Source: a virus
Taxonomy: Duplodnaviria; Caudoviricetes
DNA: 37,474 bases
IMG/VR virus record: IMGVR_UViG_3300029787_000142
Span: 1 to 37,474 of that record
Reading direction: 5' to 3' (one strand)
Made by a program: the position numbers and the translations under genes. Of the stretch, positions 1 through 33,447 are shown piece by piece. How positions within the stretch are numbered: position 1 is the first letter of the stretch; every line of letters starts with the position of its first letter. The notes beneath the pieces are model-generated. The model did not search any database, was not told the origin of the DNA, and worked only from the letters and a program-made list of their open reading frames with translations.

Positions 1-106
1 AGGAAAGCAGCTCTAGGAGATCTTGACCTTGTTAAGGAGCTAGACAACTTTCAAAACAACATGGCTGGAAGTGCAGATAAAGCAGCAAAGCTTTTAGATC
101 TTCTTA
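1..106. repeat. Terminal direct repeat, copy 1 (circular assembly overlap)
   Basis: 1-106 is identical to 37369-37474 (aggaaagcagctctagg...gatcttctta). Confidence 0.97.
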
Positions 107-3042
107 GAATACAAAGACAATTTATAGAAATTTCAGACATTCAAGGGTTTAGGCTAGATGTTTTAGAGGATGCTGTTCAGGCAACAATTGATGGAAGATC
201 TATCAATTACAATATTGGAAGCATTCTAGATAAAGACTCTGTTTTAAAAAGCCTGTCCAAAGAAGCCGAACAAAAAAGAAACGAGTTTAGAAAAGCGCTT
301 GCAGCAAACGATGAAACAGCAAAGAAAAAAGCTCTTGATGAAATTGAAGACATAAAATCTAGAAGAAAAAAACGAGAACAAGAAGTAAGAGAAAACGAGC
401 ACAGTTTTTATTCTGCATCTGAAAATCCTGACGAATATAAAATACCTAAAAAAATGTCAGAAGTTTTTAACAATGTTGCAGAAAGCTACGCAAGAACCAG
501 GCTTGCTCTTTTTAAAGTTCTTGACAGAAATCCAGATGCAGATGCAAACAACTTTATTGCTAATGCTATTAAGGAAATTAATGAAAGAGAAATGTCTCTT
601 TATACTGATTTTCTTAGCGATCAAAACATTGCCAAATACGAATCACAATTAAGACAAGAGCTTAAAGAAACAAAGCTATCAGGAAAAGAGCAATCTCTAA
701 TAGACAGAGTTAAAACCAGAGTAGGCAAAATTTTGGAACAGCACCTATCAACATCTGGCTATCGCCCGATTAGAGACATCATGGAAGCTGGTTCTGAATT
801 TGGGACAAACCCTGAAATTTACTACAAAGACTTTACTAATGCTCTCGAAGAAGTTCTTGAGTTTGGAAATTTTGAAAAGCTAACTGAGCTTGTTAACGCT
901 GTAGATTTAATGCCAGGAAACATTGGCAAAATGTTTAAGCAAGAGCTTGGCATTTCTGCAAACAAACAATCTATGTCTTTTGTTGCAAGAGCTGCTGATG
1001 GTGGTGTTGAGCAAAAATCCATTAACTTTGAAAAAGCCAGAGAAGCATTTACCAAAGAAGGAACAATTGACTTAGGAGAGTCAAGAGTTAATGGCGCTGT
1101 TGAGGAAATGAGAGCCACTAAGCTTAAGTTAAAAGATGCATTTAACAAAGCTAGAAAACTGGAAATTGTAAAAAGAGAAGATAATCGAGTACCAAAAACA
1201 ACAGAATATCTTACGTCTGGTCCTTTGGCCTATACTGATGGCGGTTCTTTTTTACCAATTAGGGCTGACCTTGAGTCAGTTTTAAATAGGCTAAACTATA
1301 GTGACGCTGTATTTGATACCAGTCTTGTAGCTAAAGCATTTAAATCAGTAGAAGACATTCAAACATACTTACTTAAAAGCCTTGAGTATGGATCTGTTCC
1401 TGCAAGTGACACAATTAAAAGCGTAATTGAAAAAGATGTAATTGAAATGCTTAGGGCTGACATGAAAAACAGAAGCCGATGGGGGCAAATGGCCAAGCTT
1501 AAGGATGAGTTTGATACAAAAGCTAAAAGGTTTAATTTATTTGACCAGCAAACTGGCAAGCTAACAAAGCAAGTTGGCGATGAAACTCTTGCAGATCCAA
1601 AAGCCTTTATGACTTTTGTTAAAAACTTAGACAATGCAAACAGTGAAATTCTTTTAAAGCAACTTAATGGATACGGAAGAAGCGGCAGAGACTTGCTTGA
1701 AATGATTAGAGCAAACTTTGACGAGGTTGGAATAGAAAAGCCAGGTGTTGCAAGCGGCATTGATAAAAATCTACCTGCTCAAGTTAGATATGGAATTGAG
1801 AAAAAACTAAGAGAAATAGATAAGCTTGGAGTAGATATAAATCCTTCGGTCAGAACAGTTTCAGATCCTCACATGCTTTGGGATTCAAGACTTAAAAGCA
1901 TGATTGACTACTCTTCTGCATCAAGCAACGACCTTGATAAGCTGCTTGCAGAAATAAAAGAAAAGCTACCACTTGCCGAAGCATTTCTTTCTACCAATGC
2001 CAGAAACGAAAACATTGCTAACTCAATTAGCGATCTTGGAAGAGGTGGCGTTCTTGCCACAATGGCTTATTTGGCAACTGGCAGTAAAGTAGCGTCAGCT
2101 GCCGCAGGTGCTGCAGTCGGGGCAAGTAGCATGGCCCTTAACCCTGAAAGATATTTGCAGCTAATGTATCAAATGAAAGTTCTTCATGATGCAAATAAAA
2201 AACTTATCAGCGATTACATGAAGGACTGGGCTGAAAACAAAGTGCCTAAAGCTGCAATTTCAAAAGAATGGGAAAAAAAATCCAGAAGCATGCTTATGGT
2301 TGCATCTCAGCCTTATCAAAGAGACACAAGAGAAGGACGAACCAAGATAAGAAAAAAAGCTGCTCAAAATAGAAACGTTAGCAACTGGTCTAAAAAAATA
2401 GAAGAAGCTTTATCTTCTGAGCTAACAGAGGAAAACTTCTTTGAGTCTAGTACAGCAATAAGTCAGCTTGCATCTAGTAAAATGCTTATGGACAAGTTCA
2501 CAAAAGAAGTAACAAAAATCTTTGAACAAACACCAGACATACGATCAGCAATGCAGGAAACTATTGAGCGTAAGATTAAAATTGCAAACAGCTTAATACC
2601 AAAAGCAAACACAGGCACTGTTTTTTCAGACCCTATTCCTCCAACAACTTTTCAACTTCAAGAGTTTGGCAGAGCCTTGCAGGTATTAAACAGCCCCAAA
2701 GATACAATTCTTACAGCAATGCTTTCAGGAACCTTAACTCCAGAAATGGTTAAAGTCCTTGCTAATGCTTGGCCTCAAATTTATGCAGAAATAGTGACAG
2801 AGGCTATGAGCGCAGCTGACAATAACCGAGGAAGCTTAACCCAGTCTCAGAAAACAGTTCTTGCTACATTGACAGGTGCTTCAATGATGGATGCATCAGA
2901 AGCTGCAAGACTGTCAGCAACCTTTGCTCCTAAGGAAGATGGCCAAAGAGGTGGCCAGCCTGGGCCAAGGCCAGGAGGCATGAGGCAAAGCGTAAATGCG
3001 CTTAGCGCAGGAACAACTGATGGGACGCTTAACAGGCAATAA
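1..3042 (+). CDS. C-terminal part of a ~1375-aa putative ejection/internal virion protein starting at 36283 and crossing the junction
   Basis: ATG 61 corresponds to 37429, which is in frame with ATG 36283 (382 codons, no stop). Helical charged protein with an Ala/Gly hydrophobic patch. Third large gene after the nozzle. Confidence 0.8.
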   Translation, partial: RKAALGDLDLVKELDNFQNNMAGSADKAAKLLDLLRIQRQFIEISDIQGFRLDVLEDAVQATIDGRSINYNIGSILDKDSVLKSLSKEAEQKRNEFRKALAANDETAKKKALDEIEDIKSRRKKREQEVRENEHSFYSASENPDEYKIPKKMSEVFNNVAESYARTRLALFKVLDRNPDADANNFIANAIKEINEREMSLYTDFLSDQNIAKYESQLRQELKETKLSGKEQSLIDRVKTRVGKILEQHLSTSGYRPIRDIMEAGSEFGTNPEIYYKDFTNALEEVLEFGNFEKLTELVNAVDLMPGNIGKMFKQELGISANKQSMSFVARAADGGVEQKSINFEKAREAFTKEGTIDLGESRVNGAVEEMRATKLKLKDAFNKARKLEIVKREDNRVPKTTEYLTSGPLAYTDGGSFLPIRADLESVLNRLNYSDAVFDTSLVAKAFKSVEDIQTYLLKSLEYGSVPASDTIKSVIEKDVIEMLRADMKNRSRWGQMAKLKDEFDTKAKRFNLFDQQTGKLTKQVGDETLADPKAFMTFVKNLDNANSEILLKQLNGYGRSGRDLLEMIRANFDEVGIEKPGVASGIDKNLPAQVRYGIEKKLREIDKLGVDINPSVRTVSDPHMLWDSRLKSMIDYSSASSNDLDKLLAEIKEKLPLAEAFLSTNARNENIANSISDLGRGGVLATMAYLATGSKVASAAAGAAVGASSMALNPERYLQLMYQMKVLHDANKKLISDYMKDWAENKVPKAAISKEWEKKSRSMLMVASQPYQRDTREGRTKIRKKAAQNRNVSNWSKKIEEALSSELTEENFFESSTAISQLASSKMLMDKFTKEVTKIFEQTPDIRSAMQETIERKIKIANSLIPKANTGTVFSDPIPPTTFQLQEFGRALQVLNSPKDTILTAMLSGTLTPEMVKVLANAWPQIYAEIVTEAMSAADNNRGSLTQSQKTVLATLTGASMMDASEAARLSATFAPKEDGQRGGQPGPRPGGMRQSVNALSAGTTDGTLNRQ

Positions 3043-10544: not shown

Positions 10545-11252
10545 CTAAGCCCTTAGTGACATTTCATTAAACTCTACATAGCCCCCGCCATGCTTGAATC
10601 CTTCTCGAATCCTATCAGCAACTCGCGCACCATATCTAGTCTGGAAATCATTTGCATTTAGGTTAGTTGTAATAATTGTTTTTCTGTAGTTGCTGTAACG
10701 GTCATCAATAAGTTCATCGAGTCTGTGGTTAAAGTATCCATTCTTATCGAGATACTCTACACCCAGGTCATCAATCACCATCAAAGGCACACTCATCATT
10801 TTTTCAAGATGGTCATTAAACCCACTGACTCTAGCGACCCTGGCAGCTGTCCACCACCGCATGCTTTTGGGAGGAGCAGATGACATTAGCTTTGTTTTAT
10901 CCCACAAGTAGTAGGCTCCAGCTGTGCTTTTGCCGCAACCTTTAGGCCCAGCTAGTACCAGGCACCAGGCTTCTTTGGGTGCATCCATAAACTTTTTTAC
11001 AGTCATTAATGCAGATGTATCTTTTGGTCCTGATTGCAGTGTATCTATAATGCGCTGCGGCATACCTTGAAATCTTAAGGATGATGTAAGCTCATCAGCA
11101 GACATCTCCTTGTTTGTATCTATTGGGTCATCGCAGCTCCAGCCCTTCTGCTTGGCTACTTCTGCAAATGCCATAACCTTGCGCTCAATCTCCGAAACCT
11201 TTTGTCCCCTGACCGAACTCTTCACTCCCAAAACTGTACCCACTTGTTGCAT
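10545..11252 (-). CDS. DnaC/IstB-like AAA+ helicase loader
   Basis: GPKGCGKS Walker A, LMVIDDLG Walker B, DRY..KTIITTN, YGARVADRI. Start moved to ATG 11252 (AAGGGG RBS). Confidence 0.9.
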   Translation of the reverse strand: MQQVGTVLGVKSSVRGQKVSEIERKVMAFAEVAKQKGWSCDDPIDTNKEMSADELTSSLRFQGMPQRIIDTLQSGPKDTSALMTVKKFMDAPKEAWCLVLAGPKGCGKSTAGAYYLWDKTKLMSSAPPKSMRWWTAARVARVSGFNDHLEKMMSVPLMVIDDLGVEYLDKNGYFNHRLDELIDDRYSNYRKTIITTNLNANDFQTRYGARVADRIREGFKHGGGYVEFNEMSLRA

Positions 11253-11646
11253 TTTTTCCCCTTGCTTGTTTTTGAATGAAGCTGTCAAGATTGCCGTCCT
11301 TGCCCATGATGTCCTGTATGCCGTGTCGATTGTGATCAACCCACCATTGTCTCTTGGAGTTTTCAAGAATAGCAGTTTTTAGTTCTTCTGCGCTATAACC
11401 TTGGTCTAGCCTTTTCTTTATAAGCTTCCAATCCACATGGCCGGGGGAGATAGATCTGCCTCGACTTGGGTGGATTGCTTTGTAATAATCTATGATTAGA
11501 TCTATTGACGCATCGTGTTGTGAAACAACTCTTAGCTTAGATGGTTCTTTCTTTTGCTCCAGGTATAAACCTTCAAGCTCATCTCCAAGCTGACGCAGTA
11601 GTCTAACCAGTTTCTTTAAACTGTTAGCGTTGATGTTGATTTGCAT
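11185..11646 (-). CDS. Putative replication initiator
   Basis: IIDYY...LIKKRL..GYS.EELKTAI pattern recalled from phage initiator C-terminal domains. Directly upstream of the DnaC-like gene. Start ATG 11646 with AGGA RBS. Confidence 0.6.
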   Translation of the reverse strand: MQININANSLKKLVRLLRQLGDELEGLYLEQKKEPSKLRVVSQHDASIDLIIDYYKAIHPSRGRSISPGHVDWKLIKKRLDQGYSAEELKTAILENSKRQWWVDHNRHGIQDIMGKDGNLDSFIQKQARGKNATSGYSFGSEEFGQGTKGFGD

Positions 11647-11658
11647 GGAAATCCTAAA

Positions 11659-11738
11659 TGGCGGGGGTGAGCAAAGAGCAGTCAGGTTACAGGAAAAAGA
11701 AATCCTAACCGCAAAGTGGAACATGCCCACCCCCACCA
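11659..11738 (-). promoter_or_regulatory. Structured leader: 15-bp helix enclosing a 50-nt loop, upstream of the initiator gene
   Basis: 11659-11673 pairs with 11724-11738, with two G.U pairs on the - strand. Confidence 0.55.
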
Positions 11739-11750
11739 AGGTTGTATCAT

Positions 11751-12203
11751 TTAGAAGGGAGTGGTGTCATCACCATGAGGGTTACTTGTAACCTCAAAAG
11801 GACCAAGAGGCTCATGCTCTGCTTGGTCTTTGGCGTAATACTCACCAACATCCATATACTTTTCACCGTCTTCAAGCTTGGTTCGAAGGACTCCTTCTTT
11901 GCCAGCCATGTCATCGGTATCTACTTCGCCAGTAGGGTCAAACCCCATCGACTTGCAGAACTGAATGTATCGCCACTTGGCACCCTCGGTAAGATAGATG
12001 TCATCAAACATCTTAAACTCATAACCGTCATGCTCAACGATAAGCTTAACCTCAAGACGAGGCGTGCCTTTGATTGGGCTTGCCCCTGATTCAACATCAG
12101 TAATAACAAACTTATAATTTCCTGGGCCAAACGTGCTCTTGTTAGAGCTTCCACTTGACTGTGCTACATCTTCATCGCTCACTGTAAATCCTACTACTGG
12201 CAT
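11751..12203 (-). CDS. SSB-like protein (DUF669-like)
   Basis: PGNYKFVITDVE...KGTPRLEVKL and an acidic tail ending DDTTPF. Follows the Sak4-like gene. Confidence 0.75.
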   Translation of the reverse strand: MPVVGFTVSDEDVAQSSGSSNKSTFGPGNYKFVITDVESGASPIKGTPRLEVKLIVEHDGYEFKMFDDIYLTEGAKWRYIQFCKSMGFDPTGEVDTDDMAGKEGVLRTKLEDGEKYMDVGEYYAKDQAEHEPLGPFEVTSNPHGDDTTPF

Positions 12204-12943
12204 AATTGCTCTCCCATATGGGACATGTATTCGTCCCAGTTTAATTTAATTTTGTCTGGCATTTCGTACCCGACACGACAACCAGCATCTCTGCCGGGAC
12301 TGCCTAAGAAATGAATCCAACGGTCTTTGCCAAGCTCTTTGGCTTTACCGTCAATAACTTTGAAGTTTGACTGAGCATGACCGATTTGATCTGCCCAATC
12401 CCTAACTCTGTTCCATGCATACTTGCTAAGATTTGGTGCCCACTTCTTGAAGTCATCTCCAAGGGCATTGGCACCTTGCTGCAAGCCGTCATGTGCAATG
12501 AGTATGATGTTCATGTTTTTTCTTTTCCTAATAAGGTCCAGAGCAAACAAGACATCAGTAATCATTTCACCTGCAATGATAGGACCCTTGTAGTAAGCCA
12601 TGTATTTCTCTTGGTTATTTCCAAAAGTATTCTTAAGCACGTGTGCTTGAGCAAGCTGCTCGGCTTTGTCTAGGGTATCAATGATAAGTGTTTGTCTATC
12701 GTGTTCTTGTTTAAGAACCTCACGTAGACACTGCATTAGTTCTTCCCATGACTCGCATGGTGACTCAGGTATCTTAGGTATCCTTAACCCAGCAGCACCA
12801 TCTTCTGTTTGAATTAACAGTGGGTCAGGTGCATTAGATGCAAAAGATGTTTTACCAACTTTGGGCTGTCCATAAATGACTAGCCTGGGAGGTGGAACCC
12901 TAATGTCTACCGGTGCAGATACGATATTAAAACGGGATTTCAT
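12194..12943 (-). CDS. Sak4-like (AAA_24) ATPase/recombinase
   Basis: IYGQPKVGKTS, IQTEDG, TLIIDTLD, IILIAH, WADQIG. Start moved to ATG 12943 (AAGGA RBS). Confidence 0.88.
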   Translation of the reverse strand: MKSRFNIVSAPVDIRVPPPRLVIYGQPKVGKTSFASNAPDPLLIQTEDGAAGLRIPKIPESPCESWEELMQCLREVLKQEHDRQTLIIDTLDKAEQLAQAHVLKNTFGNNQEKYMAYYKGPIIAGEMITDVLFALDLIRKRKNMNIILIAHDGLQQGANALGDDFKKWAPNLSKYAWNRVRDWADQIGHAQSNFKVIDGKAKELGKDRWIHFLGSPGRDAGCRVGYEMPDKIKLNWDEYMSHMGEQLCQ

Positions 12944-13889
12944 CAGCTTCCTTTGGTTTGAAGTGTTCTTTCTTTTGAAACCTTGGGCTTTCGTAAATGT
13001 TTTCAATCCCAATACAGGACTGAAAGAAGGCACAGCCTCCGTAGTTACGACAGCTTTGTGTGTTTCTTTTTGGGTTTCCAAGATAAGCTGCAGCGTTTGC
13101 TTTGTCAGCAATGCTGAGTATCTCTTCCATCCTTCTGTCTCTTGGTCCATCAAGAACTGGAATCATCTTCCTGATGTATTTATTTTCCTCCTTATCCATA
13201 TAGACTTGAGTGATCCTGTCCTCAAACTCTTCAATTGTTTCACGTTCTTTTGTTTTCCTGTTTACAATCTTTGGCTTGGTCGCCGGTGATGTAAGAACAA
13301 CATCATACCATATATACACAGGCTTATTATATTTCTCTTTTAGATACGCAGAGTAGATTGTAAGCTGGTTATTCATAATGAGACTTTGCCAAAATATACT
13401 AGCAGGGTCCTGGCAGTCTTTGCTGGATACGTTCTTGTGCTCCATCAGGACGATGCAATCCCGCTCTTTATCAAGCAGGACTGCATCCATCCTTCCGACA
13501 AACGTTGTGCTTTCACGCTTAAGCTTAAAGTCTTCCTCGATAGAAAGAACCTCAAACCTTTTGTTGGTAAATGCATCAGCGTCTGAAACCTCCCACGCCT
13601 CATAGTATCCTTTAATGTATGCTCTTAGCTTTGGAAGGAATAATAAATCTTCGTGCCATGATTGAGCTTTAACTTCTTCTTCGATGGAATTAATAACAGC
13701 GCTACAGTTGTGACCCTGAAGGTACATCTCCTGGGCATCATGCATCATGAGCCCAGTTTTAAGTCCGTTACTTGTTGCCTTCAGCTCCCAGCCTTCACTG
13801 TATTCGTAGTGAGCTTTCATCTCGCACTGTTCTATTGTTGATATTGCGCTGGCGCTAAAGACATTTTCATCTATACAAGTTCTACTCAT
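12927..13889 (-). CDS. PD-(D/E)XK (RecB/Cas4-like) exonuclease with Cys cluster
   Basis: SASAI....QC, G..MH, E..F, GRMDAV, MEHK, QLTIY, C-terminal C..YGGCAF...C. Start ATG 13889 (GAGGAG RBS). Confidence 0.88.
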   Translation of the reverse strand: MSRTCIDENVFSASAISTIEQCEMKAHYEYSEGWELKATSNGLKTGLMMHDAQEMYLQGHNCSAVINSIEEEVKAQSWHEDLLFLPKLRAYIKGYYEAWEVSDADAFTNKRFEVLSIEEDFKLKRESTTFVGRMDAVLLDKERDCIVLMEHKNVSSKDCQDPASIFWQSLIMNNQLTIYSAYLKEKYNKPVYIWYDVVLTSPATKPKIVNRKTKERETIEEFEDRITQVYMDKEENKYIRKMIPVLDGPRDRRMEEILSIADKANAAAYLGNPKRNTQSCRNYGGCAFFQSCIGIENIYESPRFQKKEHFKPKEADEIPF

Positions 13890-14214
13890 TCTTAATTTTC
13901 TCCTCGTGTCTGGCATAAGCTTCATCAAGAATCATATCCACCACTTCTACGATTGGCGTATCTTCGAACATAATGGCCAGGGCCTCTAACAGCCTTAGTG
14001 AGTCTGTTAAAAGGACGACCGGTTTTGAGTCTCCGTGCAACTGTTTTAAATCCAGCACTATTGATTGTGCCACTCTGGTGTGTACGCTCATTTTCATATT
14101 GGGATATGCGTACTGAACCCCCGAAAGGTCGCATAAATTCTTCGCACTTTGGTTCGGCCCATCGTAAGTCTTCAGGCCATCCAAGCTTTTCCATGTTATA
14201 TTTTTTTTACTCAT
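13882..14214 (-). CDS. Hypothetical protein
   Basis: Start ATG 14214 overlaps the upstream stop. 110 aa. Confidence 0.6.
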   Translation of the reverse strand: MSKKNITWKSLDGLKTYDGPNQSAKNLCDLSGVQYAYPNMKMSVHTRVAQSIVLDLKQLHGDSKPVVLLTDSLRLLEALAIMFEDTPIVEVVDMILDEAYARHEEKIKNE

Positions 14215-14996: not shown

Positions 14997-15364
14997 TAGT
15001 ATCTCCCTGTTCCATCATAGAACTGAGGGCATGGTTCATAGTCTGGCTCATCTGGCTCATTAAAGTCTTCAGATGCTTTATCAGCCATGTGTTGTTGCCA
15101 TTCAGCCACTTCAGACATATCAGCTTCTGCTGCATATTTTTTAACAGCATCCTCCATGTCCTTTCCTATTTTTGCATAATCAATATTCTTGTTATCAATT
15201 AGCGCCTGGCCAATCTCTCTAAGAATAGAGTCACAAGCTTCAACGATGTCATCATCTTCAACCAGGTAGTCCATGTCTTTTAATCGCCATTCAGCCCATT
15301 CCTGGTCTGTTGGCTCTGGTCCGTCATCATAATCAGGTGGGTCTAAACGTGGTTCTTTTGCCAT
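14996..15364 (-). CDS. Hypothetical very acidic protein
   Basis: GGAGG RBS, Asp/Glu-rich, 122 aa. Confidence 0.78.
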   Translation of the reverse strand: MAKEPRLDPPDYDDGPEPTDQEWAEWRLKDMDYLVEDDDIVEACDSILREIGQALIDNKNIDYAKIGKDMEDAVKKYAAEADMSEVAEWQQHMADKASEDFNEPDEPDYEPCPQFYDGTGRY

Positions 15365-15627
15365 TACTTGCCTCCAAAGATATCTCTGATTTCTTGAATC
15401 AGGAATCTAATAACTACACGACGTGGAACACCAAGCTCCTTGAGGTTATCAAGGGCCATAATGATGTCCTGCTCGTTTACATTAATCTTGTCTACTCGTG
15501 TTAACTCTTTGTCCCAAATCATAGGAATCCTTTCTAGTGTCACTTTGACATCAGACCTTGCGAAAGCAGATGCCTGACTTGGATTCATGTTTTCAAAAAA
15601 CTTTCTATCTATTTTAAGTTTAGTCAT
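15364..15627 (-). CDS. Hypothetical protein
   Basis: Translationally coupled on both sides. Confidence 0.7.
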   Translation of the reverse strand: MTKLKIDRKFFENMNPSQASAFARSDVKVTLERIPMIWDKELTRVDKINVNEQDIIMALDNLKELGVPRRVVIRFLIQEIRDIFGGK

Positions 15628-15814
15628 TGTGTATTACCCTGTTAAATCTATCGTTGATAGCCACAATCAATTCAGATGGCTCCATTCCAAGTTCAAGCAT
15701 ATCACTCATTACATTGCCAAGTTCACCAATAAGAAAGTTAATAGTAATCTCATATTCGGATTCGTAAATACCTTGCTCTTGGATTTTAATTAATTCATTT
15801 TTCATAGCACCCAT
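15620..15814 (-). CDS. Hypothetical protein
   Basis: AGGAG RBS, 64 aa. Confidence 0.7.
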   Translation of the reverse strand: MGAMKNELIKIQEQGIYESEYEITINFLIGELGNVMSDMLELGMEPSELIVAINDRFNRVIHND

Positions 15815-15847
15815 AATAATCTCCTAGTTAGGTGTTGTTTAATAATG

Positions 15848-15939
15848 AGGCCGCCAATACCTAAGCCCTAGCTGGCGACCCTATGTGAGTGTAGACCTCA
15901 GATGGTATCCACCCTTTCTGGATGGCCGGGCCACTACAC
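15848..15939 (-). other. Two intergenic hairpins
   Basis: 15848-15881 (G.U pairs on the - strand) and 15889-15939 (GTGTAG/CTACAC with inner ATCCA/TGGAT). Confidence 0.45.
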
Positions 15940-15952
15940 AGGCTTAATTCGA

Positions 15953-16168
15953 TTATCCGAAGAACGCATCCTGGCACACTTGGCACCAGGCGCTAATTTT
16001 ATACTCAGCTTTAGAAACATCATCCTTAAACTCGTCGGCTGGTTTGCCGCATTTTGCACAAGTGTTTCCTGTAAGAGCGACAGTTCTAGTCGTTCCATTT
16101 GTGGAATATTTTTTAGCTATATTTCCTGAGAGTCTATCTAGGAGTTGAATATTTTTTTCACTCTTCAT
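15953..16168 (-). CDS. Small Zn-finger protein (CxxC...CxxC)
   Basis: CAKC...FKD..S..EYKIS.WCQVCQD.FFG. Start ATG 16168 with GAGGGAG RBS. Confidence 0.75.
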   Translation of the reverse strand: MKSEKNIQLLDRLSGNIAKKYSTNGTTRTVALTGNTCAKCGKPADEFKDDVSKAEYKISAWCQVCQDAFFG

Positions 16169-16282
16169 TCTCTCCCTCTTTTCTTTTTTTATCCTCTCCC
16201 AAAATATTTGGTCAGAGGTTTGAAATTTTGTATTTGGCCCTATTAACATGGGACAGTGAAAATCCTGCGGGTTGCGGTGGGC

Positions 16283-16976
16283 CTCGCAGAGCGGGTCTTA
16301 GGGCAGAGCCCTCACGCCCTCCGCGAAGGAGTTGGTCGCTCCTGCGGGACTGCCAGAGGCTATCCGGATTGAACAGGATGTTCACTGCCAGAGGCTAATG
16401 GATTCTTAAGGCATTGCCTTGAGAGCCCTCCGGCTTGAGGACGGGTTCCTAGGGCGGAGCCTTAGGCACTCTCCGTGGGGAGAGCCCTTCGGCTTGAGAA
16501 CCGGTCGCTCCTGCGTGACCGCCGGGGGCAACCCGGATCCAACAGCATGTTGGTCAATCCATCGGAACGGTGGAGCCCTCCGGCTTGAGGGCCAATCCAA
16601 CGGAACGTTGGTCGCCGATAGGCGAAACGCCAACCACCTACGAGGACAACCGAATCAGGTCCCCTCAAGGGGCCTGGGTTGGCCGAGTCCTGGATCCGAC
16701 CCTGTGTCGGTGCGTGTGGTTTCGGTTACCGAGTGGCGGGGTCCGGGGCTGGCAAGTCCCGTGTTAACCGACCAACAGCCCCGTGCTGTTTGGTCAAATA
16801 GGTCATGACCGAAGGGCATGTCCATGCGTTGGGGCGGGGGCCTGCCCGAAGGGCACAAGCGTCTCGCCTTAGCGAGTCGTTCAAGGCTGGGGTGCCGGGC
16901 TCTTAGGGCGGCTGGTGTTCGGCTGGGATCGAGGGCTCGGCTCGCGGGGATGCTCGAAGGGGCAGAGCCCCTTCGA
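16283..16976 (+). other. GC-rich non-coding array of triloop hairpins and short repeats
   Basis: At least 12 short hairpins with GNA/AGA triloops. G.T wobbles favour the + strand. No credible ORF. Confidence 0.75.
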
Positions 16977-16989
16977 AAGGTATCAGGCC

Positions 16990-17013
16990 AAAAAAAAGCC
17001 CGCTTTCGCGGGC
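16990..17013 (-). terminator. Intrinsic terminator
   Basis: GCCCGC-GAAA-GCGGGC followed by U8, downstream of 17039..17746. Confidence 0.9.
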
Positions 17014-17038
17014 CTTGATTTTGGTTACTGGTTACTTG

Positions 17039-17746
17039 TTACGCTGATTTACTAAGCCGTCGGTCGAGTTCATCCCGCTTCGCGAACTCTTCTTTTAACA
17101 AGTCGTCGGTGTCTGGCTCGCTGGCGTCGCCCACTTGTCGAGCCGCTTTCAAGTCGTCCTGGCTGTCGATGGCGTGTGTGTACTCGGGTGATTCTCCCGG
17201 CTCCTTTTCCGCTTCGACTTCGTTTGCAGAGTCAATTTCACTCTGGATGATTTTTACCACCTGGGCATAGTGGGCGGTGGTTACGGTTTTGAAGTCGAGC
17301 CGACGAGCCGCATCAAGCCTAACTTCTGGCAGAGCTTCAAGCCGTCCGCAGATTGCCCCGAATGCAGCCTTATAAGTTGGCGTCGACATTCCCTCCTTGA
17401 GGTACTGGCGGCGCTTTAGTGACAACTCGCCGAACTTTGATTTGAGCACTGTTTTGATATCCATTTTATTCTGATTGTGAGTCTTTGCGATTTCAGCTCC
17501 CTCCGGTGCTCCTGTTTCTTCGAATAGCAATACATTGATATCTTCCGCTTCCATTTCTGAGAGCATTTCCTGAAGTGGGGCGATGTTATCATCAAACCAC
17601 TTCTGGGCTCTCCACTGGTTCATAGCGACAATGCGCTGGTCACTGAGGCTGACCGATGAGAAGCGCGACGTCGGGCGCTCCTTGCCTGCTTTCTCGTTTC
17701 TGAGTGCGTCTGCCTGGGCTTTGATTGATTCAATTGAGTAAGTCAT
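17039..17746 (-). CDS. Hypothetical (putative immediate-early) protein
   Basis: 235 aa, AACACAGGA RBS, own terminator, acidic C-terminus. Confidence 0.85.
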   Translation of the reverse strand: MTYSIESIKAQADALRNEKAGKERPTSRFSSVSLSDQRIVAMNQWRAQKWFDDNIAPLQEMLSEMEAEDINVLLFEETGAPEGAEIAKTHNQNKMDIKTVLKSKFGELSLKRRQYLKEGMSTPTYKAAFGAICGRLEALPEVRLDAARRLDFKTVTTAHYAQVVKIIQSEIDSANEVEAEKEPGESPEYTHAIDSQDDLKAARQVGDASEPDTDDLLKEEFAKRDELDRRLSKSA

Positions 17747-17751
17747 AATAA

Positions 17752-17781
17752 TTCCTGTGTTCTGCCGGTGTTCCGTCCGGC
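17752..17781 (-). promoter_or_regulatory. Leader motif copy 1: hairpin with ACGGAACA loop plus AACACAGGAA RBS
   Basis: GCCGG-ACGGAACA-CCGGC-AG-AACACAGGAA. Confidence 0.65.
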
Positions 17782-17785
17782 GGGT

Positions 17786-17808
17786 GAAAGAAAGCCCCCG
17801 AAGGGGCT
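17786..17808 (-). terminator. Intrinsic terminator/attenuator
   Basis: AGCCCC-UUCG-GGGGCU followed by UUCUUUC. Confidence 0.7.
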
Positions 17809-17829
17809 ACTGGTGCTATATTTTGGTGA

Positions 17830-18060
17830 TTACCAAGGGCAAGTCGAGAAAGTCTTGTTAAGTCTTTCCGCTTCTTTTGCGTTCGCTTCCTTGAGTCTGG
17901 TGATATAATCACTCATTTGCTGAATGGTTTTGAAGTAGTGTCCGTTGTGTAGCGTGTTATCGATTAGCAAATGAACCGAATATGGAAGGGCGGCGTTTGG
18001 TCGTTTGGATGCCTGGTACTGAAAGATCGCAGAATCAAAAATCTCAATTACTTGGTACAT
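17830..18060 (-). CDS. Hypothetical protein, first gene of the early arm
   Basis: 76 aa, AACACAGGA RBS, directly downstream of a consensus-like promoter. Confidence 0.75.
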   Translation of the reverse strand: MYQVIEIFDSAIFQYQASKRPNAALPYSVHLLIDNTLHNGHYFKTIQQMSDYITRLKEANAKEAERLNKTFSTCPW

Positions 18061-18129: not shown

Positions 18130-18722
18130 GCAATATCCTGATATGTGTATAAACTTTACACGTACGCGCCTATTATATGCTTAATATTGCCTATCGTCTC
18201 TCCGTGGAGATCTCGACAAATGAATACTAGGGGATCAAGGCAGCTCGAAACCGCTTAGAAACGATTCTCAGGGCTCCTGTGGTGTATTGTTTACGTTTAC
18301 AATAATGCCTGCGATTATAAGGATTTGCTTCATGCCCCGCCGATCCCGGTTAGCAGTGAATCCGATGAGCGTGAGTCATACGAACGGAAGGCTGGTGTAT
18401 TGGTTGGTCGAGCACTCGGTCGTTATCCCAGCCGTGAGCAAACCAGTTAGCTTGGTGGCACCACGATGAAGCACTGAGCCGTTCCACTGCCGGTAGTTTA
18501 CGGCGCTAGAGTCTATGGTTTTTATGCAGTATTTGTATCGTGTTTTGTACCACTGGTGAAACTCGGTATCTAATAACTACAGTAGGTTAGAAGATTAGTG
18601 GATTAATATTCCCATTTGTTACCGGGGATGTGTCGAACATTCTTACCTGAAACATGTACTTTTTATAATCCATTCCCCTCTCTATTCCTATCCCGCTACG
18701 TATATATCTCTATATTTGTATT

Positions 18723-18736
18723 GGGGGGTACCCCCC
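18723..18736. repeat. Perfect 14-bp palindrome GGGGGGTACCCCCC (candidate packaging/terminus signal)
   Basis: Lies in the ~1-kb non-coding gap upstream of the terminase genes. Function is inferred from position only. Confidence 0.45.
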
Positions 18737-19042
18737 TTTTCAAGATGAGGGAATTCAGGCCAAACACCCTCTACGAATTTTTATCCAATTTGACTCTAGC
18801 GCACTGCGTCGAAGATAAGCACAACACCCCCCCCCGGATCTACTAGCTGAAAACCGCAGGATTGGTTACCTGTATTGTGCTTCACTGGTGAGTTACTTCC
18901 AGTGTCGTATATGGAATCTATCTGGGTGTTGCTGATTGTCTAGTTAGTCAGCCAGTAGGCATATACGAGTCCGCGTCCGGCTCTAGGGAGGATTAACCTC
19001 TGCCGTCTACTCCGTAACTCGCACTATTACGTTAACCAAGAG

Positions 19043-19078
19043 TTGAAACTTAAACAATAGCTCACTAGAATCTATTGT
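19043..19078 (+). promoter_or_regulatory. Late-arm promoter with overlapping inverted repeat
   Basis: TTGAAA-17-TAGAAT, then 7 nt, then ATG. ACAATAG-N11-CTATTGT brackets the -10. Confidence 0.65.
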
Positions 19079-19519
19079 ATGAAAGATGACGCTATTGAGA
19101 CTGAGATTGTAAAGCAAAAGATTACTAAAGGTACATCTGATACCCCAACTACCCGAGCAGGCCGCAGGGCCAAGTCTGGCAAAGCCACTGTTACTAAAGA
19201 CGGTGTTAAGAAAAAGGCCAGGTCTACTGGCACCTATGGCATCTCTGGCAGCAAAGTTCAGATACTACAGACTCAAGATAAGCATAAATTATGGGCAGAT
19301 CTGTTCTCTATTACCGAAAGTCAGATAGGTTCATTAAAAGAAAAAATTGAATCTGGCCTAGAACTAGACTCAAAAGACATGTCTAAGCTTGATAGCTGTT
19401 ATAACGGCATGAAAAAACTACTGGAAATAGAAACTGTACTTAAATCTGACGCCATTGCTTCTATGTCTACAGAAGAACTAAAGCGAATGGCCAAGAAAGC
19501 AATTAGAGAATCCAAATGA
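19079..19519 (+). CDS. Putative terminase small subunit
   Basis: Position ahead of TerL, basic N-terminus, helical C-terminus ending MSTEEL..MA. Positional inference. Confidence 0.5.
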   Translation: MKDDAIETEIVKQKITKGTSDTPTTRAGRRAKSGKATVTKDGVKKKARSTGTYGISGSKVQILQTQDKHKLWADLFSITESQIGSLKEKIESGLELDSKDMSKLDSCYNGMKKLLEIETVLKSDAIASMSTEELKRMAKKAIRESK

Positions 19520-19965
19520 TTAGAAGCATTGAACAAATTGACGAAGACTTTATATACCATTCTTGGCTGCATTCCGTTAAATGCCCCACCAAATCAGTCT
19601 CAAACATGACCAGATACCTTATAGACTCCCTGGTTGCAGACAAAAACATTGCTATTTGGTGCCCAGATGACGACAAAAACCACATTGTTGGGTGGATGGC
19701 GTATGGAAAAATAGAAAATACACCCCTGTTTCACTACATGTTTGTAAAGAAAAACTTCAGAAAAAACTCTGTTGGTAAAGAATTGCTATACAATGTGTAC
19801 CCTGACAGAGATATTCAGGTGTTTTGCACCTACTGGTCGCACCATATGCAAGCAATGAACGCTCGTAATAAATGGAATGTTAAGTTTGCATCCAACCTTT
19901 TGCCAGCAGTTATTCATAATCTTCATGCTAACAAGGATTTAGAGGTTTATCGTGGCGCTGCCTAA
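19516..19965 (+). CDS. GNAT-like acetyltransferase
   Basis: MIR....D..FI, IVGW, HYMFVKKNFRKNSVGKELL resembling GNAT motif A. Confidence 0.65.
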   Translation: MIRSIEQIDEDFIYHSWLHSVKCPTKSVSNMTRYLIDSLVADKNIAIWCPDDDKNHIVGWMAYGKIENTPLFHYMFVKKNFRKNSVGKELLYNVYPDRDIQVFCTYWSHHMQAMNARNKWNVKFASNLLPAVIHNLHANKDLEVYRGAA

Positions 19966-30500: not shown

Positions 30501-30628
30501 AAATTTACGACGCAGACAACAGCGCCTCTACTGGTGATGGGTTTGTAATTGAAAGCATTGCCTTAGAAATTGGAACTAAGCGAGGCATCTTTAGAACGTC
30601 AGAATCTAACACAATTGGAGCGAACTAA
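27509..30628 (+). CDS. Tail nozzle/tubular protein (beta-propeller)
   Basis: LENG.F...G.I.KRKG N-terminus, HRNRLF..IFFS, LKTGW. Start moved to the TAATG-coupled ATG 27509 (1039 aa). Confidence 0.8.
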   Translation: MPLKKKVAVIPFGKGVQSKKTDITLEAGELEVLENGIFDKLGHIAKRKGHSESAWSISSVGKPQAFFQFQGAIYWLTSMGSVYRLNPNDLTSFDYLGAYSPVHTETFTASGESALHHQENPHIALSGNGNYLCVVYTEADYDYTNNAINYKYRWVAVDTATMKIVDTKSGRTADALARYTFNGRVKVAAVGNTHFAIYWEYNNGGSYELRRDEMVPNSTGQQPSFASGGVVIAASSNDYNQTPAQQSFDISETASIGSVHVAYYKTNSGSHSVRYVKDNAPLDNTSSADLDYGTDFNGGLSGTAPVSPLAIGRSALGAERIYIGYRTDSSSTIRVYLFPEGVASSTALTATDYHSSSHFIPHGFVDYRPTPGVLTTDYVAFVYQSGSTSSPYAQNARYIQDPSGTPAFVAGVKAGINGRHSIGPFAFTTGSDSMKSIVVGAGDQYTADSEFGSIVFNGTLGANVGDEWTGVSAVNSFKYEHSADSCRTVTGSGVAYSAFPRSSNINTFPDGSGGSTVVTNSNINVLKFTPGIPEWGVRYASLGKSVFFNVGNAIYRDSFGNNLDILGMPKPVIKSATASSGGSLDEADYKYKAVFEKEDAQGNLYRSEPSDEFSVSTTSSNKTVTVLVHNMHDIKAGGTYRVALYRTEGGGNIFHKVQTINGTSASNLTVSFVDDIADSSVLAGAFLYTEGGELPSTRCPASFYVEAHRNRLFVISEDNRIFFSKEYQEGFGVSFTDTFFVPLDGLDDDKPTALGSAGGTIYLFRENSIWALSGDGPDKTGTGNYYTPQLVSNSIGALKGSPTIFTDEGLFFQSTKGIFLVGSGGITYVGSPVEDVLGTSRIIDMIQDQETSTIRFITDSNVIAYNYSTKQWSNYTFSTLGDYKIIGAGNADGDIYLSTNNSKLWKESGYKLGTTYLPLSLKTGWISFNEIQGFGRVYRFALLGKSKDKHTLTVKVYYNYDDNSTPDIYTFTTTSADDAVLQFRAHMKQQKCEAVKFEIYDADNSASTGDGFVIESIALEIGTKRGIFRTSESNTIGAN

Positions 30629-33447
30629 TGGCTAGTGCACAAGCAGCAGGCTACGGCGAAATGCTAAGAGAAGAAGAAGATGATGAGCAGGGGCTTGTTT
30701 CTGCAGCAGCAGGAGGCCCTCAGGAAACTCAGCCAATGTCAGGTGACAATCCTTTTGGTGGTGGCGACCCTATTACTGACAATTTAGACACAAGCCCAAT
30801 TAATAGCGGCGACCCTACAGGAGTAGCGTCAAGCCCTGGCGGAGGTATTGATCTTAATGCTGTTGCCCCAGGAATACCGGGAGCAAATGTAAGCTCTCCA
30901 GAAGATGCGCCAACACCACCATCTGTTGCAGGAACAGCAATAAATACTGGAGCTAATGCAAACGTATCTGCTCAAGCTCCTATGTATTATGAAGATGAGT
31001 TTATTGATCCTCTTATTAAAAGAGACGTTCTTCAAAGAGAAGACGCTCAGCTCAGCGCAGAAGGATTTGATGCAGCAAACGTTGGCAGCGCACTTGGTGA
31101 AACAGGCATTACAGCCGGAGATTTTACAGGCGCTGATTTAAACGCCCAGGACCAAATGGGAAGGTCTGCACAACAAACCCAGATGGAGCTGCTAAAACAA
31201 GCAGCAGCAGGTCAAATGAGCCCTGCCATCCAACAGCAACGAGACAGAGCAACACAAGATGCACTTGCCTTGATGGCAACTCAACGAGGTGTTCCTGCGG
31301 CAGCAGCTATGCGTACTGGCATGCAAGGTATTTCTGAAGCAGGAAGACAAGCAACAGAGGCTGCGGCCCAGCAACAGCTCCAGGCAACTCAAATGCTTGG
31401 CGATGCAGGAACTCAGTTTAGACAACAAGAAATCGCAAAAGCGTCAGAACAGGCCCAGTTAAACCAGCAAGCAACAATAAGACAAGCAGAGCTTGATCTT
31501 GAAGCAATGACATCAACCGCTCAAATAGAACAAGAGCGGTTAAATCTTATTGGCAACTTCCAGCAACAAGCAAACTTAACCAATGCTCAAATGGCAGATG
31601 AGATGGCTTTAGCAGAAGCTCAAGTAAACGCTCAGCTTGAAAATCAAAGAGACCAAATGGTTACTTCTTTAACAAGCCTTGGTGTTGAACGAGACATGGC
31701 TGAAATGCAAATAGCTTCAGAAATGGAAAGACTTAAAGAAGAGCTTCTTTATAAATTCTGGGCAGGAAAACTTGGTGCAGCCACTCAAATTGGTACTGGG
31801 CTTATGGAAGCAGCCAGTGATTCAGAAGATATTTTTGAACAATTTATTGAAGAAGGCTCTGTCTTTAATATCTTTGGAGGATATCAAACCCCTGAAGGTT
31901 ACGAGGTTGGCGGAGCGCAAATTACAGGGCCATTAGGATATCAGGGTGACTTAGGCCCAGGCTTTGGAGCTGTTCCAGGAGCAAACCAGCCAGGTGCAGT
32001 TTACGATGTATCATCTACTGAAGGAGCACCGGTAGTTGTTAACCCAACTGAAGCAGAAGTTTCCGGCATAGAAGCAAAACAAAACATTGCGCCAATTGGA
32101 ACCAGGGACGAGTTTTACAGAAAACGTGAGCCTACTAGGTTTGGTCAAATGGAAAACTCGCCTACGGAATTTGCAGGAAATATTTCTGCTACAGATCCAA
32201 TGGCAATGAACAAGGTAGGCACATCTAAACTTGGTCAAGTAAACAGAGGTCTTCTTAAGTCTGAGCAAAAAGACCTACTAAAAGCTGCAACAGCAGACCC
32301 TTATCAAACAAGAGCTAAGCCATCTGCAGCGTTCAGAGGAGGCATGCAGACTGTATCTGATTTTATGGAATATGGTTCATTGGGTGCAGCTGCTTCTGGG
32401 TTAGCAAGCTCAAACAAAGAAGAGCGAGAACAGTCAGCTCATGCTCTTGGAAGATATGGAGCTCAAAAAGCGCTCGAGGCCGGAGTAGAAGAAGCTTCTG
32501 AATACATCGACAAAGTAAGCAAAGAGGTTGGTGAGGAAGCAATTAAGCTTGGCGATGTTGCAAAAGAAACAGCCAGCATTGCAGGCAAAGCTTCTGAAGA
32601 AACTTTAAAGTCAGCCGGAGAAAGAGCTGCATCGGAAGCTGCTCCAATTACAGCGGCTCAGGCAGCGCCATACATTGGCGGAACATTACAGTTTCTTTCA
32701 AGCACTCTTCAGGGAGACCAAACAGGCCCTGCCGCAATTAGAGCTGGCGGTGCAACGCTTGGTGGTTTAGCAGGCGCAGGCGTAGCTTCTGCGCTTGGTC
32801 AAGCAGCGGCAACAGGCGCAGCAGCAGCAGCCATGGGTGGAGCTACAAGTGGCGCCGCAGCAGGCTCTGCGCTTCCGGGTATTGGGACAGCAATCGGTGC
32901 AGGTGTAGGCGCACTTTCAGGCGCACTTGGCGCTGCAGCTGGTTCTGCAGGAGCAGAGCCTCTTGCCAGAAAAGCAACTAAGCAACCTAGAAAACCATTA
33001 AGCTTTCAGGGAATTAGAGACCCTGAATCAATGGTTGGTGCGCCTTCGGCCCCAGGAGTCTATTCTGGGCTTGAAACTAAAAGGTACATTGAAGATCTTA
33101 CCCCAGTATCATCAAGCATGAGATACGGTGAAATCTCTGACGAAAATGCAAAAACAGGAATTGGCCCTTCGCAAGATGAGCTTTCTGGTTTCTTGAGAGA
33201 GCTTAATCCTGTTAAGTATGACTATAAGCCAGAGTATGGTGGGGAAAAGAATCAATACGGAATCATTGCTCAAGATGCACAAAAGACTCCAGTAGGAGAT
33301 TCCTTTGTTAAGCAAAATGGTGATGGCACTCATGTAATTGATACAGGAAAAGCAACTATGGTTAACATGGCTGCATTGGCTAACCAGCAAAGAATTCTTG
33401 ATAGACAAGACATGTTAATTGCTGAGCTTCTGAAAGGAAGAGGATAA
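30628..33447 (+). CDS. Putative ejection (DNA delivery) protein with C-terminal S74-like chaperone domain
   Basis: Gln/Ala-rich helical core and a Gly/Ala zipper. SDENAK..I...LNPVKYDYK...GIIAQD. Confidence 0.72.
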   Translation: MASAQAAGYGEMLREEEDDEQGLVSAAAGGPQETQPMSGDNPFGGGDPITDNLDTSPINSGDPTGVASSPGGGIDLNAVAPGIPGANVSSPEDAPTPPSVAGTAINTGANANVSAQAPMYYEDEFIDPLIKRDVLQREDAQLSAEGFDAANVGSALGETGITAGDFTGADLNAQDQMGRSAQQTQMELLKQAAAGQMSPAIQQQRDRATQDALALMATQRGVPAAAAMRTGMQGISEAGRQATEAAAQQQLQATQMLGDAGTQFRQQEIAKASEQAQLNQQATIRQAELDLEAMTSTAQIEQERLNLIGNFQQQANLTNAQMADEMALAEAQVNAQLENQRDQMVTSLTSLGVERDMAEMQIASEMERLKEELLYKFWAGKLGAATQIGTGLMEAASDSEDIFEQFIEEGSVFNIFGGYQTPEGYEVGGAQITGPLGYQGDLGPGFGAVPGANQPGAVYDVSSTEGAPVVVNPTEAEVSGIEAKQNIAPIGTRDEFYRKREPTRFGQMENSPTEFAGNISATDPMAMNKVGTSKLGQVNRGLLKSEQKDLLKAATADPYQTRAKPSAAFRGGMQTVSDFMEYGSLGAAASGLASSNKEEREQSAHALGRYGAQKALEAGVEEASEYIDKVSKEVGEEAIKLGDVAKETASIAGKASEETLKSAGERAASEAAPITAAQAAPYIGGTLQFLSSTLQGDQTGPAAIRAGGATLGGLAGAGVASALGQAAATGAAAAAMGGATSGAAAGSALPGIGTAIGAGVGALSGALGAAAGSAGAEPLARKATKQPRKPLSFQGIRDPESMVGAPSAPGVYSGLETKRYIEDLTPVSSSMRYGEISDENAKTGIGPSQDELSGFLRELNPVKYDYKPEYGGEKNQYGIIAQDAQKTPVGDSFVKQNGDGTHVIDTGKATMVNMAALANQQRILDRQDMLIAELLKGRG

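Follow-up and report, generated by a model that had tools for sequence, protein, structure and literature searches.

We report a structured noncoding element of ca. 700 nt in the early region of a tailed phage, whose hairpin structure is real, conserved and strand-specific. The way in which its helices, loops and mismatches vary between homologues makes it probable that the array folds as single-stranded DNA, whatever its function. By analogy with priming sites of plasmids and small phages, we tentatively propose that the element is an enlarged single-strand initiation (ssi) signal at which the host primosome would load helicase and primase.

Genome setting

The window (the whole stretch of DNA analyzed, 37,474 nt) is a complete circular tailed-phage genome of 37.4 kb, assembled as a single contig with a 106-nt terminal repeat. 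Out of 117 listed open reading frames, 44 genes were scanned against PHROGs, which assigned terminase, portal, capsid, tail spike, endolysin and RusA as well as the replication and recombination genes listed below. No primase, helicase, DNA polymerase, RNA polymerase, reverse transcriptase or HUH enzyme was found among the 44 scanned genes. Likewise, a test for a retron revealed no adjacent reverse transcriptase gene in this set, which covers phage genes, a host reverse transcriptase being possible. Early genes are transcribed leftward, from ca. 18060 to 9389. The element occupies the gap that lies 3′ of the first two early genes and their terminator, before the block leading to the replication genes. 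Both flanking genes are on the − strand, and the + strand is thus antisense to both, as the preliminary description of this DNA had stated. The features of the region are as follows.

18723-18735, no strand: G6TAC5-type palindrome upstream of terS, family-conserved, kept in many relatives
17039-17746, − strand: flanking early gene, 235 aa, helical, three close homologues
16995-17016, − strand: intrinsic terminator of the upstream early genes, GAAA tetraloop and T run, scoring weakly on the + strand too
16283-16976, + strand: structured noncoding element, ca. 700 nt, 64% GC, repeated hairpin modules
16220-16249, + strand: σ70-like site TTGAAA-18-TAACAT; the -35-like hexamer aligns in homologues, the -10 does not
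15953-16168, − strand: flanking gene, 71 aa, first of the downstream early/replication block
10545-13928, − strand: replication/recombination block encoding a DnaC-like loader, an O-like initiator, SSB, Sak4 and an exonuclease

The 235-aa flanking protein produced no family match and no fold match. No clear iteron array was found in the O-like gene, and the origin was not located. The palindrome likely lies near the packaging site or a genome end. Of 70 terL loci, 29 end 800-2000 nt upstream of terL and 14 end that far downstream; there is a weak hint that a genome end may lie near the palindrome, 1.7-2.4 kb from the element.

Several other features of the genome were recorded. Between the palindrome and terS (18720-19080), noncoding blocks (the palindrome, ACCCTC..GAATTTT, a C-run and others) are conserved in relatives with 58-95% terL identity and could possibly be a packaging signal or a late leader RNA; the stretch at 18850-18970 folds with a z of about −3.5 and has no Rfam match. 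A GNAT acetyltransferase-like gene (19516-19965) is located between terS and terL. The 939-aa and 941-aa products of region 30628-36272 are probable ejection proteins with unusual C-termini, a Peptidase_S74 chaperone domain in the former and an M23 peptidoglycan peptidase in the latter. A 1375-aa gene (36283-37474 plus 61-3042) wraps around the assembly join; its product is helical and has six homologues only. One terL relative in a MAG was retrieved by the genome scan, which is too little to name the host, and a second exonuclease scan yielded no further contig.

Composition and hairpin modules of the element

The GC content is 64% over positions 16270-16985 versus mostly 35-50% elsewhere (500-nt windows), in agreement with the GC-rich island described earlier. 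All 12 hairpins listed in that description were found at their positions, the one at 16804 with an internal A·G mismatch. Since repeated modules inflate hairpin counts, they represent ca. 8 module types rather than 12 independent hairpins. Handles beginning with L denote other loci.

16300-16312, + strand: module A copy 1, loop AGA; in L031 the loop is GAA and a stem pair goes from G-C to A-T
16319-16331, + strand: module E, pentaloop GCGAA/GCGTA, two-sided stem changes
16352-16395, + strand: two module B hairpins (GCC-AGA-GGC) flanking module C copy 1 (16370-16384, loop GGA/GCA)
16429-16441, + strand: module D copy 1, 3-bp stem closing the heptaloop GGCTTNA, which is complementary to the AGCC that immediately precedes the stem
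16448-16466, + strand: module A copy 2, loop GGA/AGA, covarying 8-bp stem with G·T
16469-16482, + strand: invariant hairpin, CGTG loop
16488-16529, + strand: module D copy 2 (16488-16500) and module B copy 3 (16521-16529, loop GGG/GAA)
16539-16611, + strand: module C copies 2-4 (16539, 16558 and 16597; loops GCA/GGA/GAA) and module D copy 3 (16579-16591)
16635-16710, + strand: module found also alone near the terminal palindrome in L016
16804-16855, + strand: two c-GAA-g hairpins (GTA and AAA loops in L044)
16954-16976, + strand: 3′ cap hairpin; a GA-zippered GNA hairpin and an A/T tract instead in L031 and L044

The preliminary description had allowed that the density of triloop hairpins might match that of shuffled controls. 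We counted 10 purine-N-A triloop hairpins with stems of at least 4 bp on the + strand, compared to a mean of 0.78 in dinucleotide shuffles, none of which (0 of 300) reached as many. A single such hairpin is present on the − strand, where 157 of 300 shuffles were as high, and other 700-nt windows of the genome contain at most four per strand. No GNRA or UUCG hairpins are present in the element. The triloops are in part of the stable GNA type: 3 of 12 are extra-stable c-GNA-g loops and 4 are GNA loops with other closing pairs, while 5 are AGA and fall outside the GNA rule. A·A-closed DNA triloops exist.

The cap hairpin of the window has a plain Watson–Crick stem and an AGA loop. The tetraloops of the element are GATA, GGCA and CGTG; the first two fit GNNA, not GNRA, and GATA/GGCA and CGTG fit the DNA classes cGNNAg and cCNNGg, respectively. 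Module D copies have a 3-bp stem (TCC/GGA, TTC/GAA or CCC/GGG) around GGCTTNA, and module E has an ACGC/GCGT arrangement matching the complementarity between the module D loop and the upstream AGCC. Such complementarity could possibly allow a switch, a pseudoknot or a kissing contact. In L016 (1690-1770), the module of window positions 16635-16710 stands alone ca. 60 nt from the terminal palindrome, which suggests that modules can move. Separately, the 11-nt c-GGA-g motif of module A (16451-16461) recurs at the ColE1 origin G-run (L104, 1177-1187), which may be due to chance.

Folding of the whole region gave z values from −6.3 to −10.7 relative to shuffles (both strands, DNA and RNA parameters). 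The comparison of DNA and RNA folding suggested in the preliminary description thus revealed a fold far better than that of shuffles but separated neither strand nor molecule: since z is strong on both strands and for both molecules, energy alone picks neither.

Homologues and conservation

Profile searches over all fetched loci detected the element at the same place in four other haplotypes: L043/L044, L031 (= L034, L039, L042), L024 (= L029, L036) and L027 (= L030, L037, L041). Equivalent arrays at the same position in related phages, which the preliminary description had proposed to look for, thus exist. Over 1725 nt, L040 matches the window exactly; it was not counted as a homologue. The sequences of L024, L027, L040 and L043 end inside the element, and L031 and L044 are the other full-length homologues. 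A short version of the element was recognized by eye in L065 (E 0.005). Pattern matches in L020-L023, L025, L026, L028, L035 and L038, which came without wider similarity, were dropped.

Purine-N-A triloops on the + strand number 5, 6 and 8 in L031, L044 and L024, respectively (0 of 300 shuffles in each case), with 1-2 on the − strand; GNRA/UUCG hairpins are at zero or chance level in the window and these three homologues. The core of the element (16421-16616) is 86% identical in L042, compared to 75% for the gene at 15364-15627, and 91% identical in L036/L037, compared to 75-77% for neighboring genes. Overall, the element is more conserved than its flanking genes in the three more distant haplotypes of the four. 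A protein-coding role was considered and rejected. Substitutions at codon positions 1/2/3 of the longest + strand open reading frame were 9/8/10, 6/9/7, 7/9/6 and 4/1/3, and indels of 2-3 nt occur, with reading frames breaking between homologues. The lack of third-position bias and the frame-breaking indels indicate that the element is noncoding and under selection.

BLAST against 50,697 phage records returned the terminator as the only match. Neither the element nor such an array in a tailed phage is described in the literature covered, a scope outside which most subscription papers fall, including the classic pas papers. A different GNA-rich block of 600-850 nt, with no sequence match to the element, is present in L002 (600-1445), L050 (5788-6648) and L069 (2950-3570), where it is located directly between the first early gene and the terminal palindrome.

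Covariation, choice of strand and choice of molecule

Pairing was analyzed in an alignment of five haplotypes comprising 14 helices, 65 pairs and 313 cells. As many as 97.8% of the cells are paired, a value reached by 0 of 500 shuffles, and controls with slid helices gave 33-47%. Two-sided changes were observed in 6 of the 65 pairs (4 of 500 shuffles as high), one of the six compensated pairs coming from a helix misaligned in L024/L027. Because of this helix, and because the structure was drawn from the same sequences, covariation is to be taken as support, not proof. The non-Watson–Crick pairs in the 14 helices are G·T (7), A·G (1), G·G (1), C·C (1) and C·T (1), with no A·C. It follows that the + strand is the one selected, and the choice of this strand from G·T wobbles, made earlier on the window alone, holds in homologues.

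Loops swap among GAA, GGA, GCA, GTA, AGA and AAA in homologues. In GGA/GCA/GAA/GTA, the middle base is free, G and A are fixed, and the closing pair covaries from A-T to G-C; c-GAA-g, c-GGA-g, c-GTA-g and c-GCA-g were all found. The accessible text of PMC13037366 reports that GNA triloops are the only mini-hairpin formers among all 64 triloops, that their RNA versions are far weaker, that DNA mini-hairpins are known at the G4, ssiA and N4 initiation sites, and that they resist 3′ exonuclease and bind SSB poorly. Since a free middle base between a fixed G and a fixed A is the rule for DNA mini-hairpins given there, this variation was counted in favor of DNA. The RNA hairpins of the phage had been said to use GAAA and UUCG loops, and its terminators indeed have GAAA and TTCG loops. 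Taken together, covariation, loop variation and mismatch types in homologues strengthen the earlier proposal that the + strand folds as single-stranded DNA.

A one-strand hairpin across the phage family

The array of L031 and of L044 ends in a different hairpin, whose GNA triloop is zipped by tandem G·A pairs; an A/T tract and then the terminator follow. Such a hairpin cannot form on the opposite strand. It was counted in 40 loci merged into 29 clusters, using a pattern chosen after the data had been seen. Upstream of terL (98 kb), 14 copies were found on the + strand and none on the − strand, in 11 of 29 clusters, with 0.06 expected per strand; downstream of terL (195 kb), there were none on either strand. 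Upstream sequence reached 3 kb or more in 21 clusters; of these, 9 have the hairpin (8 without counting L042) and 12 do not. A wider pattern produced 21 rows, all on the + strand, 18 of them outside − strand open reading frames and several 23-72 nt from the next early ATG. Most copies are located in an intergenic gap, shortly beyond the stop of an early gene. Judging by the ratio of 14 to 0 and by this position, the family carries a one-strand hairpin signal in its early region, of which the clade of the window has a greatly enlarged form.

In L073 (4700-5020) and L084 (1290-1750), the GA-zippered hairpin has other duplicated hairpin modules before or around it, which suggests independent expansions at the same site. 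Perfect DnaA boxes are present in the early control region of distant relatives (L074 at 5808, L093 at 4697, L084 at 1499, L089 and L090), some of them within 40 nt of the hairpin; in the window, a near-box (18144) is located next to the first early promoter. A perfect DnaA-box sequence inside terL (+425 to +443 in many loci) is probably a coding coincidence.

Possible link to single-strand priming signals

The 13-nt core of the GA-zippered hairpin is identical to ColE1 positions 1331-1343 (0 of 200 shuffles), on the strand with primer-RNA sense, ca. 140 nt past the G-run/origin motif and just downstream of the origin. We take this ColE1 hairpin to be the n′-pas region, a PriA primosome site. 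The ColE1-type ssi sequence is not printed in the accessible text of PMC3167613, PMC5778457, PMC5935869 or bioRxiv 10.1101/2022.12.05.519187. From the same texts, pas/ssiA is exposed as a single strand downstream of the origin and recruits PriA (PMC3167613), the phiX174 pas is a hairpin that loads DnaB (PMC5778457), an 82-nt stem-loop ssi lies within 60 nt of oriV (PMC5935869), and ssi signals are non-essential priming aids (bioRxiv 10.1101/2022.12.05.519187).

A 61-nt segment of L086 weakly matched 1749 plasmid records (E up to 10). Of two plasmid matches inspected, one, in tandem form, is between repE and parA of an F-like plasmid, and the other is beside a lone ATPase gene. Among phages, 13 records matched, the best, also in tandem form, being a noncoding gap of a microvirus, on the gene strand (E 0.04). 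The matches inspected in plasmids and phages are weak (E 0.04 to 5).

When the element is compared with ssi/pas signals, hairpin DNA specific to one strand is found. The ColE1-type GA-zippered core, whose assignment to pas is our assumption, is found at the 3′ end of the element in L031 and L044 and, among the 29 clusters, in 11, and is absent from the window itself; the pas motif GAAGCGG occurs on neither strand of the element. A position on the lagging-strand template downstream of an origin would fit if the origin lies near the O-like gene, where no iteron array was found. The element would work like a single-strand initiation signal and is a candidate member of that family.

The preliminary description had named a priming origin among several possible roles, and this reading gained support from the host-dependent set of replication genes, the counts of the GA-zippered hairpin and the identity of the ColE1 core. 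Under the proposed mechanism, the phage, which has its own O-like initiator and DnaC-like loader, would need the host helicase and primase. Three situations could expose the + strand: passage of a rightward fork that started at an origin near the O-like gene, for which it would be the lagging-strand template; rolling-circle replication, in which it would be displaced; or 5′-3′ resection of a nearby genome end, which would leave it as a 3′ tail. Once exposed, it would fold, exclude SSB and recruit PriA/DnaB/DnaG, and the − strand would be primed from the folded + strand; the extra modules may add binding sites or nuclease resistance. The proposal is held tentatively because the window has no ColE1-like hairpin or pas motif and because 700 nt is much more than an ssi needs: known signals of this kind are 40-140 nt long (40 and 82 nt in the papers cited above).

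Transcription and alternative explanations

The region had been described as shielded from early transcription by a strong terminator. A − strand terminator is indeed present (17016-16995) but scores weakly on the + strand as well, and the + strand σ70-like site at 16220-16249 had been overlooked. The search of RNA runs listed a single run, X1, whose only high-identity contig in 13000-37474 is inside the element.

16381-16613, no strand: stretch under the single contig of RNA run X1 (233 nt, depth 2.4); the contig gives no strand or level

The abundant + strand RNA that the preliminary description had set against a DNA role did not show up in X1, whose one 233-nt contig, of depth 2.4, may nevertheless come from such an RNA. 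Because X1 was picked for holding the 3-kb query 15000-18000, a contig would land inside the element by chance ca. 1 time in 4-5, and DNA carry-over is possible. Contigs of 31 nt at 32802, 85-90% alike, were ignored, and stretches without cover prove nothing. A strict σ70 scan, which can miss non-canonical promoters, found no − strand promoter in the gap of the window or in 11 of 14 gaps scanned.

These data bear on the possibility that the element is a large structured noncoding RNA of the ROOL/GOLLD kind, transcribed from the + strand between the promoter at 16220-16249 and the terminator at ca. 17015, with GGCTTNA loops that may kiss. The bracketing σ70-like site and weak terminator, the X1 contig, an RNA fold z of −8.8, frequent G·T wobbles and a size that fits ROOL/GOLLD according to the accessible text of PMC5737381 and PMC12286853 speak for it. 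We nevertheless consider it unlikely: no Rfam covariance model matched the element, the tRNA scan found no tRNA nearby, RNA-type GNRA/UUCG loops stay at zero or chance level in four haplotypes, 12 of 22 hairpin loops in the RNA minimum-free-energy fold are 3 nt long, the -10 box is not conserved, and the contig has the shortcomings just given. A sponge RNA of the CsrB/RsmZ type was rejected, since such RNAs have a conserved GGA in hairpin loops and the GGA loops of the element change to GCA, AGA or GAA in homologues. An RNA is also part of the picture in a ColE1-like R-loop origin, where a + sense RNA would hybridize to the − strand and the displaced + DNA would fold and load a primosome at the 3′ hairpin. 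The order of promoter, ca. 700 structured nt with G-runs and ColE1-like hairpin is that of ColE1 (accessible text of PMC3167613 and PMC5935869), and both the RNA contig and the DNA-type loops would be explained. Yet a primer RNA would not fit in compact relatives, conservation of the promoter is poor and the phage has an O-like initiator, which makes such an origin very unlikely.

Three further readings also start from DNA. Single-strand hairpin promoters, like those of N4 or Frpo, could fire the downstream early/replication operon, with the + strand as template. The element does lie between a strong terminator and the next operon, the hairpin is 23-72 nt from the next ATG in compact relatives, the σ70 scan left the gap without a − strand promoter, and in N4, too, the hairpins have GNA triloops and belong to the template strand (PMC4496689, accessible text). 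The same text gives N4 promoters a virion RNA polymerase of ca. 3,500 aa; no such gene is present in the complete circular genome, where RNA polymerase family matches are zero and the largest protein has 1375 aa. The helical C-terminal part of the latter (993 aa) points weakly to P22 gp16-like ejection proteins and gave no clear polymerase fold match in a low-confidence model. Moreover, the stems are by eye short, GC-rich and unlike the rebuilt -35/-10 stem of Frpo, which restores these boxes in conjugated single strands (PMC9849209, accessible text). GNA triloops are thus present ahead of early genes on the + strand, the template for the leftward operon, but a recognizable virion polymerase was not found, and we regard hairpin promoters as quite unlikely. 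Folded + DNA exposed by end resection could instead block exonucleases or soak up host single-strand sensors. A distance of 1.7-2.4 kb from the likely end, where the + strand would be a 3′ tail, the exonuclease resistance and poor SSB binding of mini-hairpins (PMC13037366, accessible text) and repeated modules suited to a sponge are in line with this. With no target identified, a weakly supported genome end and the identity with plasmid origin hairpins left unexplained, a barrier or decoy is very unlikely. Finally, an ejection-pause signal like the T5 injection-stop region, raised in the preliminary description, lost support. The element is noncoding, rich in repeats and palindromes, and follows the first early genes close to the end that likely enters first, and a few distant relatives (L074, L093/L097) have DnaA boxes beside the hairpin. 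However, the element itself has no DnaA box (0-1 mismatch), while the T5 region has eight (bioRxiv 10.1101/866236, accessible text), and a double-strand signal needs no one-strand G·T and G·A pairs; this reading is highly improbable.

Significance

Most of the single-stranded DNA structures with a known function are short signals of plasmids and single-stranded phages. Motif searches based on comparison usually cannot tell such structures from RNA (PMC5737381, accessible text); loop rules together with strand-specific G·A pairs offer a way to do so. The family forms a series at one genomic position, from a 13-nt ColE1-like hairpin to a 700-nt array. If the single-strand initiation signal proposed here does prime DNA, it would show by what means tailed phages that have no primase attract the restart primosome of the host; with another function, it would be among the largest natural DNA folds proposed. 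At the speculative end, the array may be a natural 700-nt multi-domain folded DNA, a counterpart of ornate RNAs, with tertiary contacts via the triplicated GGCTTNA loops, exposed or released as a single strand during infection by a double-stranded phage and acting as a protein scaffold, decoy or catalyst; we see this as a long shot.

Comparison with known systems

The element shares with ROOL/GOLLD its size, intergenic phage location, dense structure and possible loop-loop contacts, but has no Rfam match or tRNA island and carries triloops instead of RNA tetraloops. Like the T5 injection stop signal, it is a repeat-rich noncoding block after the first early genes; unlike it, it has strand-asymmetric pairing and no DnaA-box array. 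With the promoters of N4 virion RNA polymerase, it has in common template-strand GNA triloop hairpins near the likely first-entering end; the phage has no 3,500-aa virion polymerase, and many different hairpins take the place of the one conserved −17 to +1 sequence of N4. Compared with the DNA mini-hairpins d(GCGNAGC), many loops are AGA/AAA or have A-T/G-C closing pairs, and longer stems are set inside a multi-module fold, whereas the GNA loops with a free middle base and the c-GNA-g variants in homologues are alike. PriA sites and ssi signals (ColE1 n′-pas = ssiA, phiX174 pas, G4 origin, RSF1010 ssiA) differ in that the element is in a double-stranded tailed phage, is ca. 700 nt long and modular, and in the window is without the GA-zippered core or GAAGCGG. 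They resemble it in being one-strand hairpin DNA with GNA mini-hairpins, the family core is letter-identical to ColE1 1331-1343, and the phage replicon, too, relies on host priming proteins.
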